A stretch of DNA of 64,000 bases from a virus (IMGVR_UViG_3300021426_000009:10121-74120); one strand, 5' to 3'. Positions 2,537 to 60,020 are shown, counted from the first letter of the stretch. Translations and numbers: made by a program. Notes: a model not told the origin generated them from the sequence alone.

Positions 2537-2559
2537 TATTCATCTAAAAGGCAAGAGCA

Positions 2560-2775
2560 ATGAAAGAAACAAGAGAAATGTTGTCCCTTTGGAAGCATTC
2601 AGTACAATGGGAGAAGATGACAAGTAGGCAGAAGGCATTATCGGTATGGTTCTCCCTGTCGTTCGTGATGGTCGGAGCATGTGGCGGCGATATGCTGCCC
2701 TTGGCCCTGGCCTTGGTGAATTTCGGTGCAGCGACGTACTTCTGCGTGAAAAACGTCCCAATGGAGGAGGAATGA
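2560..2775 (+). CDS. Small membrane protein (two hydrophobic segments)
   Basis: Hydrophobic stretch ALSVWFSLSFVMVGAC...LALALVNFGAATYFCV; AAGAGCAATG start. Confidence 0.7.
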   Translation: MKETREMLSLWKHSVQWEKMTSRQKALSVWFSLSFVMVGACGGDMLPLALALVNFGAATYFCVKNVPMEEE

Positions 2776-5117: not shown

Positions 5118-5151
5118 TTAACATTATGTGTAATTCAAAATTTCAAGAGCA

Positions 5152-6099
5152 ATGAGTTTATTTAAGAAACCAAGCGAGTTAGAGTTTGTGACCACCATCA
5201 AGATGCTGGTCTATGGTCAGCCGGGTATCGGCAAGTCAACAATGGCACTGAGTGCACCCAATCCCGTCCTGTTCGACTTCGACGGAGGTGTACAACGAGT
5301 AAACGTAGCGTTCCAGTGTCCGACGCTGCAAGTGAAGAGCTGGGAGGAAGCACTCCAGGCCCTCGATGAGTTAAAGGCTGGCGAGGTCGATTGCAAGACA
5401 ATCGTGATTGACACGGCAGGAAAGATGCTGGACTTCATGTCCGACTACATCATGCGTAACGACTCGAAGATGAAGCAGCGTGACGGCTCTCTCAGCCTGA
5501 AGGGCTATGGCGCCCGTAAGGTGATGTTCCAGAATTTCCTCCTTCAGGTGGCCCAGATGGGCAAGAACATTGTCTTCGTAGCACATGAGCGTGAGGAGAA
5601 GGACGGTGATACAAAGATCGTCCGTCCGGAGATTGGCGGTTCTTCAGCAGGCGACCTGATGAAGGAGCTTGACCTCGTCGGCTACGTTCAGGCCGTCGGT
5701 TCTGACCGTACCGTGTACTGGACACCTCAGGAGAAGTTCTATGCCAAGAACACCTGCAATCTCCCTGCATGGCAGAAGATACCTGTCATCGTTGACGAGA
5801 AGGGCAACGTGACACAGCAGAACGACACGCTGCAGAAGGTGTTCGCCTACTACGAGGCCAACGTGAAGAAGATCGAGGAGACACGCAAGCGCTACAACGA
5901 GCTCCTTGACGAGATTGAGGTGGCCATCGAGAACATCACGGATGCCAAGTCTGCCAATGAGTTTGCCAAGGCCATCGGCACGACGGAGATTATCTGGGAC
6001 AGCAAGGTTCGTGCCCGTGAGCTGTTCAAGGCCAAGGTAGAGCAGCTGAAGCTGAAGTGGAACTCTAAGTCGAAGACCTATGAAGACGCTGCAGCCTGA
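5152..6099 (+). CDS. AAA ATPase (Sak4-like recombinase)
   Basis: Walker A GQPGIGKS, Walker B TIVIDT, AHE motif. Confidence 0.85.
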   Translation: MSLFKKPSELEFVTTIKMLVYGQPGIGKSTMALSAPNPVLFDFDGGVQRVNVAFQCPTLQVKSWEEALQALDELKAGEVDCKTIVIDTAGKMLDFMSDYIMRNDSKMKQRDGSLSLKGYGARKVMFQNFLLQVAQMGKNIVFVAHEREEKDGDTKIVRPEIGGSSAGDLMKELDLVGYVQAVGSDRTVYWTPQEKFYAKNTCNLPAWQKIPVIVDEKGNVTQQNDTLQKVFAYYEANVKKIEETRKRYNELLDEIEVAIENITDAKSANEFAKAIGTTEIIWDSKVRARELFKAKVEQLKLKWNSKSKTYEDAAA

Positions 6100-13293: not shown

Positions 13294-13392
13294 TTAAGAC
13301 CGAAAACGTTTGACTAAGAGCTGAAAGATGAATAACTTTAAACAATATACAGGAAACAAGATTCTAACGGAAACTGAAAGAGCAATGAAGAT

Positions 13393-14868
13393 ATGACTTA
13401 CAACGAGATAACATTATGGAGACACTTCATGCAGGGAAAGGGAGTCCTGAGTAACTTCGAGTACCTGTACAAAGCCCACAGGTTCGACAAGAGGGACCTC
13501 GACAAGTACTTGGAGGACACTCTCGCAGAGGACGTCATCCTGTCGGCATTCGACTTCACGGGAGCAGGCAACACCATCTTCGGATTCAAGTACTGGAAGG
13601 AAATGGATCAGAAGTGGCAGCTGAAGCTCCGTGAGTTCAGGATGTCTGGCAACATGATAGGAGAAATGAAGGTCGTCTGTCCGCACTGCAACCGCTCTCT
13701 CCCGAAATCGAACTTCGCCTACAACCCGAAGGGACAGCTCCACAAGCATTGCAGGGAGTGCGAGTCGGGCGAATGGGACAGGAAGAAGAAGGAGGCCGAG
13801 AAGAAGGCCCTGGAGCAGGAACGTCTTGCCAAGGAGGCACGTCAGCTGGAGAAGGAGATAGCAGAGAAGCAGGCCAAGCTCGAGAGGATGACTGCCACCA
13901 TGTCGGACACCCCAGCGGAGCCGGTCCTGAACGGAAGGGAGGAGACGGCACGTCAGCAGATAGCCGAGAGCCAGGCCAACCTCGGGAAGACCACGAAGGT
14001 ATGCAGCCATTGCGGAAAGCGCAAGCTGAAGTCGGAGTTCGACAAGTCGGACACGACGGAGGACGGCCTCCAGTCGTGGTGCAGGACATGCCAGAGTGCT
14101 GCATCCAATGTCAGCAATGAGACGGACTGGCAGTATGAACGTGAGGAGAAGAAGAAGGCCATCATCGCACAGGCGAAGCCGGTGAGCATAGAGAAGCTGA
14201 CCGCACCGAGGCTTGGCGAGTATGACGCAACCCTCCACTACAAGTCCAATCAGAAGAGCATCACGTTCAATGCAGTCCTTTCGGAACAGCTGCAGAAGGG
14301 GCAGTTCACGAAATGCTACCTGAACAGCGACAGGTCGCACCGCCAGTTCCTCATCTTCAATCGTGTGGACGGTGCCAATGTCGTGGGTGTCAGCAGCCGT
14401 GCATCCATGCTGCTGGGCATCAACTCGGCAGACATAGTCCGCAGCCTCGGAGCAAGGTTCAACCTGAATATTGGAGAGAACTACTACCTGCACATCACTC
14501 GCAACCTGTCGAGGACAAGCGACATAGTGACTGTCGAGATACTGGCCGCCCGCACAAGGGAGGAATATGTGAAGATCGCCCAGCGACGTGAGGAGAAGTC
14601 GGGCAGTGAGGAGTCGGAGGTCCAGGAACCTGAGGTGACGGAGGAGAAGCCCGTGGTGGAGACACCGAAGGAGGAAGAGAGTCAGGCATCCTCCCAGCCC
14701 CTGCTGGACTTCGACACCGAGCCGTCTCAGGGTATAAATGCAGAGAAGATACTGGAAAATCTGACAGACCGCAATCTCCTGTCGGAGCGGGACCTCGCAA
14801 AGTTCCTTCACAAGAGAGGATGGAAGCTGCAGGAGCCGGTAAGGTCATATAAGAAGTTCACGCTATGA
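13393..14868 (+). CDS. Large hypothetical protein with two Cys4 zinc-ribbon modules and a coiled coil
   Basis: CPHC...CREC and CSHC...CRTC. Confidence 0.75.
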   Translation: MTYNEITLWRHFMQGKGVLSNFEYLYKAHRFDKRDLDKYLEDTLAEDVILSAFDFTGAGNTIFGFKYWKEMDQKWQLKLREFRMSGNMIGEMKVVCPHCNRSLPKSNFAYNPKGQLHKHCRECESGEWDRKKKEAEKKALEQERLAKEARQLEKEIAEKQAKLERMTATMSDTPAEPVLNGREETARQQIAESQANLGKTTKVCSHCGKRKLKSEFDKSDTTEDGLQSWCRTCQSAASNVSNETDWQYEREEKKKAIIAQAKPVSIEKLTAPRLGEYDATLHYKSNQKSITFNAVLSEQLQKGQFTKCYLNSDRSHRQFLIFNRVDGANVVGVSSRASMLLGINSADIVRSLGARFNLNIGENYYLHITRNLSRTSDIVTVEILAARTREEYVKIAQRREEKSGSEESEVQEPEVTEEKPVVETPKEEESQASSQPLLDFDTEPSQGINAEKILENLTDRNLLSERDLAKFLHKRGWKLQEPVRSYKKFTL

Positions 14869-17724: not shown

Positions 17725-17843
17725 ACATTCTGAATATCAGGACGTTAGCCCGAAAATACTTGCGTTTTTCCTTGGTCATTTGCAAAAAAATGACTACCTT
17801 TACACTATAAAAAAAGAAACTCATCTAAAAGTTAAGAGCAATG
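17713..17843 (+). repeat. Promoter cassette repeat copy R1 (TTG-N20-TACCTTTA ... AAGAGCAATG)
   Basis: Shares AAAAGTTAAACATTCTGAA and an identical TTGCAAAAAAATGACTACCTTTACACTATAAA core with 31132-31257 and 38213-38342. Confidence 0.9.
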
Positions 17844-31002: not shown

Positions 31003-31033
31003 TTGTTTGTTTCGGGAAAATTGCCTATCTTTG
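31003..31033 (+). promoter_or_regulatory. Promoter TTG-N20-TATCTTTG
   Basis: TATCTTTGCAGCGTT (31026-31040) is identical to the portal promoter at 33413-33427; no plus-strand ORF before the terminator at 31082-31120. Confidence 0.72.
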
Positions 31034-31039
31034 CAGCGT

Positions 31040-31120
31040 TTCTTATAATGAAGCTGCGTTTCAGCAGATTCATTGCTCTTGCCAGTCCAAGTCGTGAGAC
31101 TATGGGCTGGTTATTTTTTT
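31040..31120 (+). ncRNA. Candidate ~80-nt small RNA containing TTCATTGCTCTTG, antisense to AAGAGCAATG start motifs
   Basis: Promoter upstream; hairpin AATGAA/TTCATT plus CTGC/GCAG; intrinsic terminator CCAGTCCA-AGTC-GTGA-GACT-A-TGGGCTGG-TTATTTTTTT. Confidence 0.6.
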
Positions 31121-31131
31121 GTGTGCTTTTG

Positions 31132-31257
31132 AAAAAGTTAAACATTCTGAATATCAAGTTGTTAGCTTGAAAAAAGGCACGAAAAAATTTGGAAAATTGC
31201 AAAAAAATGACTACCTTTACACTATAAATAAGAAACATAAAAAACAGAAGAGCAATG
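31132..31257 (+). repeat. Promoter cassette repeat copy R2
   Basis: Aligns with R1 and R3; TTTG-N20-TACCTTTA; TATCAAGTTGTTA matches the IHF consensus WATCAANNNNTTR. Confidence 0.9.
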
Positions 31258-31422: not shown

Positions 31423-31464
31423 GAGTTATAAGAAACATAGTATTCATCTAAAAAGACAAGAGCA

Positions 31465-31857
31465 ATGAAGGAAGTTAAGAAGTTTTTGGTTTACTACAAC
31501 GAAAGTAGAGAGTTGATCGGAATGAGGGAACACCACTTCGATTGGGAAGAGGGTGACACCATCACGACCGATGGAGTAAGCACCGTGATTTTCGGCATCT
31601 TCGAGGGAACGAAGAAGAACCTGAGTCTGGCACACAGGATGTTCGACACCCTCCGCAAGTACCTGCCGAAGAAGAAGGAGGTGAGAGTCCTCGATGAGGG
31701 CTTCGTGAAGACCGGTGATGCGTTCGAGGATATGATGAACGCAATGCTCCACAGCCACTATGAGTTGGTGGACGTTCACAAGAAGGTATGGAGAGACTTC
31801 GATGCACAGCTGGACTTCGTAGACAGCGTGTTCGCAGAAATGGAAGAAATGAAGTAA
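31465..31857 (+). CDS. Hypothetical protein, island 2
   Basis: AAGAGCAATG start. Confidence 0.7.
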   Translation: MKEVKKFLVYYNESRELIGMREHHFDWEEGDTITTDGVSTVIFGIFEGTKKNLSLAHRMFDTLRKYLPKKKEVRVLDEGFVKTGDAFEDMMNAMLHSHYELVDVHKKVWRDFDAQLDFVDSVFAEMEEMK

Positions 31858-32272: not shown

Positions 32273-32284
32273 AAGATAAGAGCA

Positions 32285-32683
32285 ATGAAGACTGTAGTAG
32301 AATGGAAGAATAAGAAAATTGAGGTCAGCAGCCGATATGTCGGCTACGACACCCCTCCCTTCGGTGGTAACAAGCGTAGTCATTTCAAGGTGTCAATAGC
32401 CGTGTCAGGCAAGGGAGGTGACAGGATTTTCAGGTCGGACTTTTGGCAGAGGGACAAGAAGATGAGAGCCCAGGATCTGCGTGAAGCCCTTGAGTGCTTC
32501 TGCAGCGATGCCATCGGAGGAGACATGAGCGTAGAGGATTTCAGGGACGAGTTCGGCTATGATGACATCGACAGGCTGTTCAAGGTGCACAATGCCTGCA
32601 AGGACTGTTTCGAGAACTTCAGGCACCTCGGCCTTGACCCCTATGAGCTGAGCAACTGGCTCAGGGAGAAGTACGATATATAA
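32285..32683 (+). CDS. Hypothetical protein, island 2
   Basis: AAGAGCAATG start. Confidence 0.7.
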   Translation: MKTVVEWKNKKIEVSSRYVGYDTPPFGGNKRSHFKVSIAVSGKGGDRIFRSDFWQRDKKMRAQDLREALECFCSDAIGGDMSVEDFRDEFGYDDIDRLFKVHNACKDCFENFRHLGLDPYELSNWLREKYDI

Positions 32684-33390: not shown

Positions 33391-33420
33391 CTTGATTTTC
33401 AAGCGTTTTTTATATCTTTG
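33391..33420 (+). promoter_or_regulatory. Portal-operon promoter with perfect CTTGA-TTT-TCAAG palindrome and -7 TATCTTTG
   Basis: Read directly from sequence. Confidence 0.72.
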
Positions 33421-33444
33421 CAGCGTTATAACACTTTTTTGAGC

Positions 33445-38212: not shown

Positions 38213-38342
38213 GCAAAAGTTAAACATTCTGAAAACCAGATTGTTAGCCGAAAAATACTTTGAAAAACGTTTGGTCATTTGCAAAAAAATGACTACCTTT
38301 ACACTATAAAATAAGAAACATTATTAAACAAGAAGAGCAATG
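38213..38342 (+). repeat. Promoter cassette repeat copy R3
   Basis: Aligns with R1 and R2; GTCATTT-GCAAAA-AAATGAC inverted repeat between the -33 and -7 boxes. Confidence 0.9.
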
Positions 38343-38639: not shown

Positions 38640-38699
38640 CCTTTAAGAAGATAAGAGTTATAAGAAACATAGTATTCACCTATTTAAAAATTAAGAGCA

Positions 38700-39368
38700 A
38701 TGAAGAAAGAAGAGTTGAAAGCAGCAATCACGAAGAATTTTGCTGAAAATGAGTTTGACAAGGCAATGGAGCTGAACAAGGATCTGTTCCAGGAGTATGA
38801 GAACGTGGCAGGCAAGCGCAGCCTTACCGCCCTTGTGACCTACTGGAAGAAGAGGTCAGAGGATGAGGGTATCAAGGAAGAAGGTACTCTCGAGCCTGTC
38901 GAGGAAACCATCACATCGGAGGAGTCAGGAGAGCTGGAGGAAGCCCTCGGCATCCCTGCACCCGAAGAGGTGAAGGTCGAGGAGCCTGAGCACCAGTTCA
39001 TACTGGGAGAGACACTTGACACGGCACAGATAGAGACCCTGCTGGAGAGAGGCAACAAGGCTCTCACACGCTACTGCATCGTCAAGGAGGAGTTCAAGCA
39101 GATTAGCGACACGGAGCGTTTCATCAAGACCTCAATGATGGTCAAGGAGGACGGCTTCGGATGGAAGAGCTTCGAGTCGGCTATGGGAGTCCTCGGAGGC
39201 AAGAAAGGTATCACTGAGCGCAGGCTCGGCAGCTTCTGGAGATCGGAGTGCGGACTACCTGTCGGAGAGGAAATCACGAAGAAGACCATCTACAAGGTCG
39301 GAGAGGCATTGCGAAAGTTCGCCTTCCGTCTGAACGAGTCTGCCATCACATGTGTAACCAGCATCTAA
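38700..39368 (+). CDS. Hypothetical protein, island 3
   Basis: AAGAGCAATG start; begins MKKEELK like 31255..31422. Confidence 0.7.
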   Translation: MKKEELKAAITKNFAENEFDKAMELNKDLFQEYENVAGKRSLTALVTYWKKRSEDEGIKEEGTLEPVEETITSEESGELEEALGIPAPEEVKVEEPEHQFILGETLDTAQIETLLERGNKALTRYCIVKEEFKQISDTERFIKTSMMVKEDGFGWKSFESAMGVLGGKKGITERRLGSFWRSECGLPVGEEITKKTIYKVGEALRKFAFRLNESAITCVTSI

Positions 39369-40083: not shown

Positions 40084-40193
40084 TGGCAGAAAGCGTATGC
40101 AGATGCGCAAAATGAAGGCCCTGCTCTTTTGGAAGGTACCTGCAATGCGTTCATCGCAACGCAAGAGTAGTAACCATCTAAATTTGTAGTTCA

Positions 40194-40973
40194 ATGAACA
40201 AGAGACAGAGAAGGGTTTTCACCCTGTTGAGAACGAAGACTAAGGCAATCGGTCTCAATCGTAAGGAGTTAGAGAGTCTTGCTATCAAGATTGACAAGAA
40301 TCTGGAACTCGAAGAAGATGCCTCGGACGAGGACGTTGACGCTGCAGCAGAAGCTGCGATTGATGCGGCACTCCCGTTCTTAGAAGTGAGCCAGTCCGTG
40401 GCTCAACGCTCTATCCAAACAGCTTTGCAGCGTCGCCAGACCCAGCAGGACGATGACGATGATGATGTGATCGACGATGATGATGTCAATGATGATGACG
40501 ACCCCGATGACGTCAACCGACAGAACCAGCGTCAGCCGAAAGGAAAGGGCAAGAAAAACCGCAGCACTAAGTCGGAGGACAGTGAACTCTTGAAGATTCT
40601 GAAGAAGCAGAACGAATCCATCGAAGCGTTGCAGAAGACGATTGCCGGCATGCAGGGCGACCGTGTCAACGAGACGAGACGTGCAAGGCTGAAGAAGCTG
40701 GTGGAGAACACAGGCACGTTCGGCAAGGCCGCACTCAGGCAGTTCGACCTGATGACCTTCAAGGATGACGAAGCTTTCGATGATTATCTCGACGAGGTGC
40801 AGAAGGATTTGGACGACCTCAATCAGGAGCGTGCTAACGAGGGCCTCGGCAAGCTCGGAGACGTGCCTGGCGGTGGAGGTAAGAAGAACCCAGAGACTCA
40901 AAACAAGCCGGAGGTGATGTCTGACGAAGCTATCATTGCTATGGCAGGCGGAACTCCACAAACAACAAAGTAA
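40194..40973 (+). CDS. Capsid scaffolding protein
   Basis: Position before the capsid genes; acidic, coiled-coil, poly-Asp linker. Confidence 0.7.
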   Translation: MNKRQRRVFTLLRTKTKAIGLNRKELESLAIKIDKNLELEEDASDEDVDAAAEAAIDAALPFLEVSQSVAQRSIQTALQRRQTQQDDDDDDVIDDDDVNDDDDPDDVNRQNQRQPKGKGKKNRSTKSEDSELLKILKKQNESIEALQKTIAGMQGDRVNETRRARLKKLVENTGTFGKAALRQFDLMTFKDDEAFDDYLDEVQKDLDDLNQERANEGLGKLGDVPGGGGKKNPETQNKPEVMSDEAIIAMAGGTPQTTK

Positions 40974-58914: not shown

Positions 58915-59796
58915 ATGGATATTGATTTCGGACAGATATTGCCAAACCCGACCGATGCCACCTATAGCGCATCGATGACGTACTCGGCCATGCAGACCTG
59001 CATCGACCAGTACAAGTCCGAGTGGCTGTCGCTGGTTGACAATAACAGGAACCATCCCCTGCCGGGCTATAACGTGGACGGCTCTGCGAAGGTCTCCGAC
59101 TACTGGAGGTGCATCGTCAACGTGTACCGCACTGGGGCAGCTGCCAACAATGCGGACGCTAAGGCTGCACTGGCACAGGAGAAGGCAGACCTTGCCAACC
59201 AGAGGGCTCAGGAGGCACAGGAGGCCGCAAGCCTTGCCGAGCAGAAGGCCGCAAAGGCCGAGCAGGCTGCCAACGACAGCACTCAGAAGACCACCGAGGC
59301 AGGCAGGGTGAACGCTACGCTCGAAGGCAACACCCTCACCATCACCGACCGCCTCGGCTCGTCCAAGACCATCAACGTCAAGGGTGAGAAGGGTGAGAAG
59401 GGCGACGGCCTGAACTACTCGTCGATGACTCCTTCGGAGAAGGATGAGCTGGAACAGGGTATCGCAGAGCAGATATCGCAGCAGGGCGGCTATGCCATCA
59501 TCCCTGTAGACGAGTCATCTATCTCTCCGACGGCCACGTACCCGATGAACTCGGTGCTCGTCCTCGACGGTGTCATCTACAAGGCGAAAAAGGACACTCA
59601 GAACCTCCCCTTCCCGATGGTCGTGGAGGACGGCAGGATTCTGACGGTGACTCTCTATGGAAAGACCGTGCTGGTCAGGGCTTCCAACGTGAAGTCCGCA
59701 GACTGGGACGTCTGGCTCGACGCATCGAACGACTTGCGCTTCAGACAGCTGGAGGACAGGGTCGCAAGACTTGAAACCATCATAAGCAGACTGTAG
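58915..59796 (+). CDS. Tail fibre-like protein
   Basis: Ala-rich coiled coil and collagen-like KGEKGEKGDG; C-terminal domain paralogous to 62236..62796. Confidence 0.7.
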   Translation: MDIDFGQILPNPTDATYSASMTYSAMQTCIDQYKSEWLSLVDNNRNHPLPGYNVDGSAKVSDYWRCIVNVYRTGAAANNADAKAALAQEKADLANQRAQEAQEAASLAEQKAAKAEQAANDSTQKTTEAGRVNATLEGNTLTITDRLGSSKTINVKGEKGEKGDGLNYSSMTPSEKDELEQGIAEQISQQGGYAIIPVDESSISPTATYPMNSVLVLDGVIYKAKKDTQNLPFPMVVEDGRILTVTLYGKTVLVRASNVKSADWDVWLDASNDLRFRQLEDRVARLETIISRL

Positions 59797-59798
59797 AC

Positions 59799-60020
59799 AT
59801 GAAAAAGAAAGACGTGTTCATCAGGGTCAGGAAGGTAGCCCCCAAGCGCTATCAGATAGAGCAGAAGCGGAAGTTCCTGTTCTTCTGGGAGTTCTGGCAG
59901 AAGGGCTGTCCCTCTCTCGGGCTGAAGAAGTTCTACTCGAGCAAGCTGACCGCCAAGACGGCTGTCTATACACATGCCGAGAAGCATAACAGGAGGCCGG
60001 TGCTGATATTTGTAAATTAG
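59799..60020 (+). CDS. Small basic hypothetical protein
   Basis: ORF track. Confidence 0.55.
   Translation: MKKKDVFIRVRKVAPKRYQIEQKRKFLFFWEFWQKGCPSLGLKKFYSSKLTAKTAVYTHAEKHNRRPVLIFVN

Follow-up and report, generated by a model that had tools for sequence, protein, structure and literature searches.

What is a single backward copy of a gene-start motif doing directly behind terL, in a phage that carries the same motif in the forward direction at a series of dispersed genes? The preliminary description of this locus proposed that one trans-acting RNA made here pairs with dispersed early and accessory gene starts, and the proposal is supported: every comparative test that was run agrees with it. 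A trans-acting base-pairing sRNA that represses a tagged regulon is, in our assessment, the probable explanation of the locus. The window, i.e., the whole stretch of DNA analysed (64,000 nucleotides), comes from an IMG/VR virus record of 74,120 bp that has direct terminal repeats; it covers bases 10121-74120 of this record, and almost all of its genes lie on the plus strand. Relatives of its TerL are integrated in the genomes of Prevotella, Parabacteroides, Paraprevotella, Paludibacter and other Bacteroidota, which marks the virus as a temperate phage of that phylum. Cultured hosts with a related prophage include Prevotella vespertina A2879 (L129), Prevotella sp. KH2C16 (L131) and Parabacteroides faecalis AGMB00274 (L150). 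Among the cultured phages in GenBank there is no TerL above 30% identity, so the phage family is without a name, and a blastn search of GenBank phages with the sRNA region returned nothing. A 438-aa ORF on the minus strand (372-1688) has a weak tyrosine-recombinase match (21.7 bits, below the cut-off) and, to judge from this resemblance, is likely the integrase.

The motif, AAGAGCAATG, is found nine times on the plus strand of the window and once on the minus strand (31071-31080), against an expectation of 0.25 copies; none of 100 shuffles reached ten. The complete 74,120-bp genome has 13 forward copies and one reverse copy, the latter within the sRNA, and a backwards control gave zero. The ATG of every forward copy opens an ORF. 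The tagged products are a Sak4-like annealing protein, a YodL-like protein, an endonuclease VII/HNH-like protein and small proteins without known function, and no virion gene is among the tagged genes. The lengths of complementarity between these start regions and TTCATTGCTCTTGCC (31069-31083) that the preliminary description listed are all correct: the antisense match extends over 15 nt at 2560, 13 nt at 31465, 12 nt at 5152, 13385, 31255, 32285, 38340 and 38700, and 10 nt plus one G.U pair at 17841. The pairing always spans the AUG plus codons 2-3 of the tagged genes. Predicted duplex energies, calculated with a 25-nt seed region, average -20.7 kcal/mol for the 13 tagged starts vs. -11.3 kcal/mol for 72 others. 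The tagged starts are the best predicted targets, and only two untagged starts fall in their range: 28264 and 13393, which overlaps a tagged mini-ORF. The stop codon of this mini-ORF (MKI-stop) overlaps the 13393 ATG, so control of the endonuclease gene would need translational coupling.

The tag is a family trait. All 50 related records examined contain AGAGCAATG, usually in 5-24 copies on the gene strand vs. about zero for the control; the opposite strand usually has one to three copies, and five records have the reverse copy only as a CUCA variant of the seed. The tag belongs to the phage, not to the host: in Prevotella sp. KH2C16 a 52.8-kb prophage contig holds 16 of the 43 copies, and the remainder equal the control count. 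In another Prevotella, none of 20 sampled chromosomal copies resembles a gene start; most of them precede short open frames, and the phage leader accompanies none. Host-wide use of the tag was rejected on these two grounds. Read by eye, one host copy of AGAGCAATG (L167, G051:C18:15446-16054) appears to belong to a tRNA gene, where the D arm meets the anticodon stem; the seed would thus be complementary to that host RNA as well, which is probably a coincidence.

The sole reverse copy in the window is embedded in a compact element with the layout of a small RNA gene (Table 1). Its -7 box is of the TAnnTTTG type, the Bacteroides promoter consensus. The preliminary description held that the promoter matches the portal promoter over 15 bp, that the element ends in a GNRA-capped intrinsic terminator, that about 80 nt lack a plus-strand ORF and that GCUCUU is exposed as a single-stranded seed. 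The promoter identity is confirmed: the 15 bp TATCTTTGCAGCGTT at 31026-31040 recur at 33413-33427, shortly 5' of the likely portal start. So is the terminator, which has a GUGA loop and a U-run. The absence of ORFs has to be withdrawn: a 40-aa ATG ORF (from 31048) and a 55-aa TTG ORF (31003-31170) cross the element on the plus strand. Neither is conserved; indels break the frame in the closest relatives, and distant ones are without the ATG. The exposed seed stands in part, since CUCUU is free while CAUUG is held in hairpin 1 here. The predicted fold consists, in order, of hairpin 1, the free CUCUU (31076-31080), the GUGA-loop hairpin (31081-31111) and the U-run; the minimum free energy of 31038-31122 is -31.7 kcal/mol (z = -5.1), and none of 200 shuffles is equally stable. 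In the window sRNA only CUCUU is thus unpaired, as opposed to all of CAUUGCUCUUA in most relatives.

Table 1. Positions of the putative sRNA, its parts, the tagged gene starts of the window and the type-2 elements.
Feature	Position	Strand	Remarks
Whole putative sRNA element, directly 3' of terL	31026-31120	+	Promoter box, 5' hairpin, seed UUCAUUGCUCUUGCC, GUGA-capped terminator
Putative sRNA promoter	31004-31033	+	T-rich -33 region and -7 box TATCTTTG (31026-31033), Bacteroidetes TAnnTTTG type; read from sequence
5' tail of sRNA, GUUUCUUAUA	31038-31047	+	Antisense to leader box (U)AUAAGAAAC
Hairpin 1	31046-31075	+	UUCAUUG in 3' arm; predicted fold
Seed UUCAUUGCUCUUGCC	31069-31083	+	Core 31071-31080; antisense to start tag AAGAGCAAUG(AA)
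Intrinsic terminator	31081-31120	+	13-bp stem, GUGA loop, then U-run; predicted fold
Tagged start, 71-aa gene	2553-2562	+	15-nt seed match
Tagged start, Sak4-like/AAA_24 ssDNA-annealing protein gene (315 aa)	5145-5154	+	
Tagged start, 3-codon mini-ORF (MKI-stop)	13378-13396	+	Overlaps ATG 13393 of 491-aa endonuclease VII/HNH-like gene
Tagged start, 126-aa gene	17834-17843	+	Behind repeated promoter cassette 1
Tagged start, 55-aa gene	31248-31257	+	First after sRNA, behind promoter cassette 2
Tagged start, 130-aa gene	31458-31467	+	
Tagged start, 132-aa gene	32278-32287	+	phrog_4273, function unknown
Tagged start, 99-aa gene	38333-38342	+	Behind promoter cassette 3
Tagged start, 222-aa gene	38693-38702	+	
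Type-2 elements	L109-L120, L271, L273, L188:6560-6699(-)		Homologous window position about 40084-40193

The only promoter found by a consensus scanner is a sigma-70-like TTGCCT-17-TATAAT; the scanner is uninformative for Bacteroidetes promoters, and it overlooked the sRNA terminator owing to a bulge. No Rfam family reaches its gathering threshold; the sole match, the Aar sRNA with E = 0.7, scores 25.2 bits against a gathering score of 60. Two neighbouring features can be noted. The promoter-like TATCTTTGCAGCGTT at 33413-33427 lies inside the longest portal ORF, which makes ATG 33445 (MPLDEIF...) a more likely portal start than 33388. A box, AAAAGTTAAA, at 31134-31143 follows the sRNA terminator, stands just past the terminator in most relatives as well and marks where the repeated promoter cassette begins; a regulator of the promoter in this cassette may bind there.

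How widely is the element conserved? Of the 357 loci that a TerL search of IMG/VR yielded, 80 were taken; with the window they make 81. In 64 of these 81, CATTGCTC[T/A] occurs within 800 nt after terL, usually 55-70 nt after it. The sRNA region was recovered by blastn only from the six closest relatives, because all but the seed and the GTGA loop has diverged; these two elements, i.e., TCATTGCTC and the loop, are invariant across 25 aligned variants. There are 34 distinct sRNA variants, and a TAnnTT[TA][GA] box stands at the matching distance in every one of them. Folded individually, all variants give a 5' hairpin, the seed and a terminator, with the seed unpaired in nearly all. A putative short non-coding transcript is thereby framed by a -7-type box of its own (34 of 34 variants) and by a terminator with a covarying stem and a U-run, and it presents a conserved, accessible seed: TCATTGCTC does not vary and is unpaired in most folds, partly so in the window.

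The structure is conserved where the sequence is not: UCAUUGCUC stays invariant while both stems change by compensatory substitutions. MAFFT followed by RNAalifold over all variants misaligned hairpin 1; a covariance model was therefore built from one clade and the other clades were realigned to it. The model retrieves the other clades, and it finds the window at 28 bits (E = 0.002). The resulting 39-sequence alignment has 96.3% of its cells paired and shows changes on both sides in 17 of 18 pairs; its covariation score, 0.727, is reached by none of 500 shuffles. The alignment is fitted to the model, which favours pairing, so that the slid controls, which score 0.05-0.11, are the fairer yardstick. 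In helix 1 all eight pairs have changed on both sides (96.6% of cells paired), and the stem sequence is wholly different between clades; in helix 2, the terminator, nine of ten pairs have done so. The terminator has frequent G.U pairs, which would turn into A.C mismatches in an RNA from the opposite strand; this speaks for the plus strand as the one that is transcribed.

Several individual loci depart from this pattern. Two matches of the covariance model (L129:4319-4391 and L131:4224-4286) were discarded as look-alike terminators without the seed. One close relative has a second type-1-like copy about 1.5 kb past the first (L013:7099-7181), with the hairpin, CAUUGCUCUU and a GUGA-loop terminator; a clear promoter box was not seen there. 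At L226:6518-6587 the inner terminator hairpin is flipped with respect to the siblings (gccgactttcacaagccagc vs. gctggcttgtgaaagtcggc) and the stem is kept. At L072:5512-6085, about 570 bp of inserted DNA lie between terL and the sRNA; the insert holds an ORF beginning IWKDIEGYENEYQVSNFGNVRSL, which we take to resemble a homing-endonuclease-type gene. In the L128 lineage the seed is followed by GCC, and there are only two tagged genes, too few for a comparison of seed and tag.

The same seed recurs on a second, unrelated scaffold. In relatives without the RNA after terL the genes are still tagged, and one reverse copy is found about 10 kb downstream of terL. It lies in an element of about 130 nt, referred to as type 2, which differs from the element after terL (type 1). 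Type 2 has a separate -7 box, a 5' hairpin whose stem varies by compensatory changes, a large loop that holds UCAUUGCUC[U/A] and is closed by a long-range stem, and, after it, a terminator. It always stands in front of a homologue of the window gene at 40194 (phrog_5824), and many phages, including human-gut relatives, have both scaffolds. The same nine bases in two unrelated frames would be hard to explain unless these bases are the functional part. Upstream of 40194, the window itself has a similar first hairpin (GCGUAUGCAGAUGCGC), followed by CCCUGCUCUUUUGG and without CAUUG; this region may be a decayed or altered copy of type 2.

Seed and tag have also undergone a joint change. In a Prevotella RUG753 prophage (L134) and two near-identical IMG/VR records, the seed reads CAUUGCUUUU, with a C-to-U change that gives CUUUU. 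The five leader-bearing starts of this lineage read AAAAGCAATG (three starts), TAAAGCAATG and AGAAGCAATG: G has become A in five of five, and the gene strand of the lineage contains no AGAGCAATG. A G-C pair has thus turned into an A-U pair at one seed position and at every target, in a single lineage and as one evolutionary event, and this bears out, at five starts, the covariation of seed and start motif that the preliminary description had named as a check. It is plausible that the seed changed first and the targets later, because U still wobble-pairs with G. The lineage also retains a type-2 element (L188:6560-6699(-), identical to G051:C95) with the standard seed CAUUGCUCUUGC, to which no start within the lineage's own genome corresponds; this RNA may be a weapon against relatives or a relic, the only explanations offered for it.

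The bases that flank the core tell a similar story. On average they form 6.7 extra pairs with the phage's own targets vs. 5.6 with those of other clades, and the own value is higher in 19 of 24 variants (Wilcoxon p = 0.0006, indicative only, as the variants are phylogenetically related). An example is CGAUUU/AAAUCG in the L069 type vs. UGAUUU/AAAUCA in P. vespertina. The window's own flanks show no excess (4.6 extra pairs with own and 4.5 with foreign targets). Target sites that covary with the seed, as those of an sRNA do, are thus represented by the 13 tagged starts, the RUG753 switch and the co-evolving flanks. A further case was tried at the last base of the seed, where CUCU and CUCA variants differ; the accompanying shift toward TGAGCAATG starts is weak, and covariation at this base is unconvincing.

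In the clade of the window, the RNA mirrors the mRNA leader at a second point. Its first nine bases, GTTTCTTAT (31038-31046), are the window's sole reverse copy of the leader box ATAAGAAAC, which occurs six times forward and once in reverse vs. 0.29 copies expected; four of the six forward boxes stand 11-24 nt upstream of a tagged start. Box and tail are present together in this clade and missing together from the other sampled clades except L055/L058, which retain the 5' tail. The sRNA therefore carries the antisense of the box as well as of the tag, so that both ends of the shared leader are mirrored. Tail and seed follow each other in the same 5'-to-3' order as box and tag, which would permit two separate helices and no continuous duplex.

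Taken together, the sequence comparisons make this a real, conserved feature, a base-pairing sRNA of a variant type, whose regulon tag is unusually explicit; production of the RNA and translational repression by pairing are what we infer from them. According to the proposed mechanism, 31038-31120 on the plus strand would encode a base-pairing RNA, about 80 nt long, that acts in trans; a host-type promoter and a terminator of its own probably delimit the transcript. The seed UUCAUUGCUCUU would pair with the tag AAGAGCAAUGAA over the start codons of 13 early/accessory genes; by spanning the AUG, the pairing would keep the 30S subunit off, and the whole tagged set would be silenced together. A second contact, between the 5' tail GUUUCUUAU and the leader box AUAAGAAAC, is possible in the window's clade. 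The RNA could serve in the lysogen, keeping tagged genes silent, possibly including those of incoming relatives, or it could shut off early genes late in infection. The late role is suggested by the position of the element after terL and by the identity of its -7 box and start region with the corresponding stretch ahead of the portal gene. Pointing to a lysogenic or immunity role are the temperate nature of the phages, many of which have two or three anti-tag RNAs, the family-wide tag and the joint switch of seed and tag in one lineage. What weighs against the mechanism is the shortness of the perfect core, only 10-15 nt, and the fact that CUCUU alone is free as a toehold in the window. The parallel order of the two boxes, the missing flank excess in the window, the restriction of the joint switch to one event in a lineage with an unmatched type-2 RNA, and the weak echo of the CUCA variant count against it as well.

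Could the RNA pair with the tag and yet act otherwise than by simple occlusion of the start? The outcome might be mRNA cleavage, premature termination, or activation or stabilisation of the mRNA, or the targets might be RNAs of competing phages or of the host. Type 2 lends itself to such a view: it is a leader with a terminator directly before a phrog_5824-type gene, with segments capable of alternative pairing, and in the RUG753 lineage the standard-seed type-2 RNA lacks a cognate start in its own genome. There is also a precedent in the P4 CI RNA, a phage antisense RNA that works by causing termination. We nevertheless consider this unlikely, given that the pairing always covers the AUG and codons 2-3, the geometry of occlusion, and that no sampled host copy of the tag stands at a gene start. 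An explanation that dispenses with the RNA takes AAGAGCAATG as the DNA site of a phage protein, like the oriented stoperators of mycobacteriophage L5, and the reverse copy as merely another site. This is improbable, even though the sites are many, share one orientation and mark the 5' ends of non-structural genes, and the G-to-A switch fits such a protein too, since a changed protein specificity would shift all sites. Every forward copy has its ATG as a start codon, which points to translation, and the reverse copy, on two unrelated scaffolds, is always an unpaired stretch with a promoter box and a covarying hairpin before it and a terminator after it. Moreover, the type-2 copy of the RUG753 lineage stayed unchanged while the other sites changed, and the core flanks co-evolve as complements.

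Two further explanations concern the inverted orientation itself. An invertible promoter segment might have as its inverted repeats the reverse copy and the forward copy that comes first after it, about 170 bp downstream, and in the window and many relatives such a pair, 165-210 bp apart, does flank a promoter cassette. The flanking is not general, though: many relatives (the L026 type) have no forward copy nearby, and the type-2 copies lie 557-816 bp downstream of a forward copy, with the pair facing the other way. The repeat is just 12 bp long, a recombinase acting on such sites would give deletions between the 13 direct copies, and an inverton has no need of a conserved RNA structure; we give this explanation very little credence. 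It is scarcely credible, finally, that translation of a minus-strand ORF (MNLLKRSF...) begins here, the alternative that the preliminary description had named as refuting an RNA, or that the site is an inverted relic of a gene start. The motif ATG does open a 62-codon minus-strand frame in the window; in 14 relatives the frame ranges from 5 to 62 aa and is unrelated in sequence after MK, so that this alternative fails. The stems change by compensatory substitutions, and a relic would not remain invariant amid diverging surroundings. With the frame not conserved and the seed invariant, the ORF and the relic were both rejected.

A repressor sRNA of a tagged regulon would be unusual in its reach. 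To our knowledge, the phage antisense RNAs described mostly control one locus. Regulon-wide translational shut-off in phages is known from a protein, T4 RegA; here one RNA would address at least a dozen genes, in a system conserved in a large uncultured prophage family of gut and rumen Bacteroidota, including Prevotella, Parabacteroides and Paraprevotella. Both translation initiation and sRNA biology are poorly understood in Bacteroidota, and a literature search for the motif or for such a Bacteroidota phage sRNA found no paper on either. If true, the mechanism would offer a simple rule for predicting co-regulated phage genes, a possible portable tag-and-RNA switch for Bacteroides engineering and a possible RNA basis for immunity among related prophages.

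A more far-reaching reading, tentative and as a whole rather doubtful, combines an address-tag system with cross-immunity, an arms race in RUG753 and a logic shared with the start-associated sequences (SAS) of mycobacteriophages. If it is true, early and accessory starts, including those of new cargo, are marked by one fixed tag, and between one and three master RNAs per phage, built on two unrelated scaffolds, serve as anti-tags. Since the family shares both tag and seed, the RNA of a resident prophage would then silence the tagged genes of an incoming relative, an RNA-based cross-immunity. RUG753 would represent a step in the arms race, with A in its own tag and U in its type-1 seed, which wobbles with the standard tag, and this switch would have come with a type-2 RNA of the standard seed being kept.

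Among known systems, P1 c4 appears akin in mechanism and nearest to the sRNA proposed here, with T4 RegA as the protein counterpart. The P1/P7 c4 immunity antisense RNA, reportedly the subject of work by Citron and Schuster in 1990, is said to be, like the RNA proposed here, a small RNA of a phage that uses two short stretches of complementarity to act in trans on phage mRNA; c4 reportedly blocks translation. Differences in its seed are said to set the immunity specificity between related phages, which resembles the switch of seed and tag in RUG753. c4 reportedly acts on one locus (icd-ant), lies in the same operon as that locus and is released by cleavage of a longer transcript. The RNA here differs in lying after terL, with a promoter box and a terminator to itself, and in matching 13 dispersed genes. 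It is not part of an immunity operon upstream of a single target; it is placed between terL and the accessory island. No sequence similarity between c4 and the sRNA was found, nor any Rfam match.

In T4, RegA and the ribosome compete for the initiation regions of about 30 early mRNAs; the RegA sites overlap the AUG or adjoin its 5' side (PMC3014915). RegA is a 122-aa protein with loose A/U-rich sites, whereas the factor proposed here is an RNA and the tag is an exact 10-nt sequence. In the same phylum as the phage hosts, direct base pairing of an sRNA with its target mRNA has been shown for MasB of Bacteroides thetaiotaomicron, which pairs with the 5' region of an mRNA, as established by gel shift and compensatory mutants (PMC10994844); a base-pairing sRNA is thus plausible in this phylum. 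The B. thetaiotaomicron sRNAs are chromosomal and have one or few targets, and MasB pairs about 40 nt inside the coding region, as opposed to over a shared start tag. LPR1/PreS of phage lambda is a trans-acting sRNA of a temperate phage with host targets, which enhances dnaN translation (bioRxiv 10.1101/2024.10.31.621285); the sRNA here, by contrast, is complementary to genes of the phage itself and would act as their repressor.

The published pattern that comes closest to the tag is found in mycobacteriophages. In Cluster K, SAS are exact short motifs present in one orientation at 13-19 non-structural gene starts and absent from the host, and a single copy in the opposite orientation in K1 phages was noted in the original paper (PMC3203893); their role is still called unknown (PMC11373665; PMC12699233). 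The likeness is one of pattern only: SAS, with the consensus GGGATAGGAGCCC, lie 3-9 bp upstream of the start codon and include the Shine-Dalgarno core, whereas AAGAGCAATG includes the ATG itself; the sequences are unrelated, the host phylum is another one, and no antisense RNA was proposed for SAS. In phage Anaya (JF704106) there are 16 forward SAS and one reverse copy, in a 385-bp gap between gp96 and gp97. On the plus strand, the complement of the reverse SAS, CCUCCUAUCC, forms the 10-nt apical loop of a hairpin (Anaya 59789-59959, L280:34790-34960). The gap region is conserved in 138 Cluster K records, mostly unannotated, and a six-phage consensus fold keeps its hairpins, with eight pairs changed on both sides. 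The predicted structure suggests an anti-SAS RNA in Cluster K, as a lead and not a finding. By analogy, the logic of a tag and a single anti-tag may explain the Cluster K SAS motifs, and the question of their role, raised in 2011, gains a concrete testable hypothesis.
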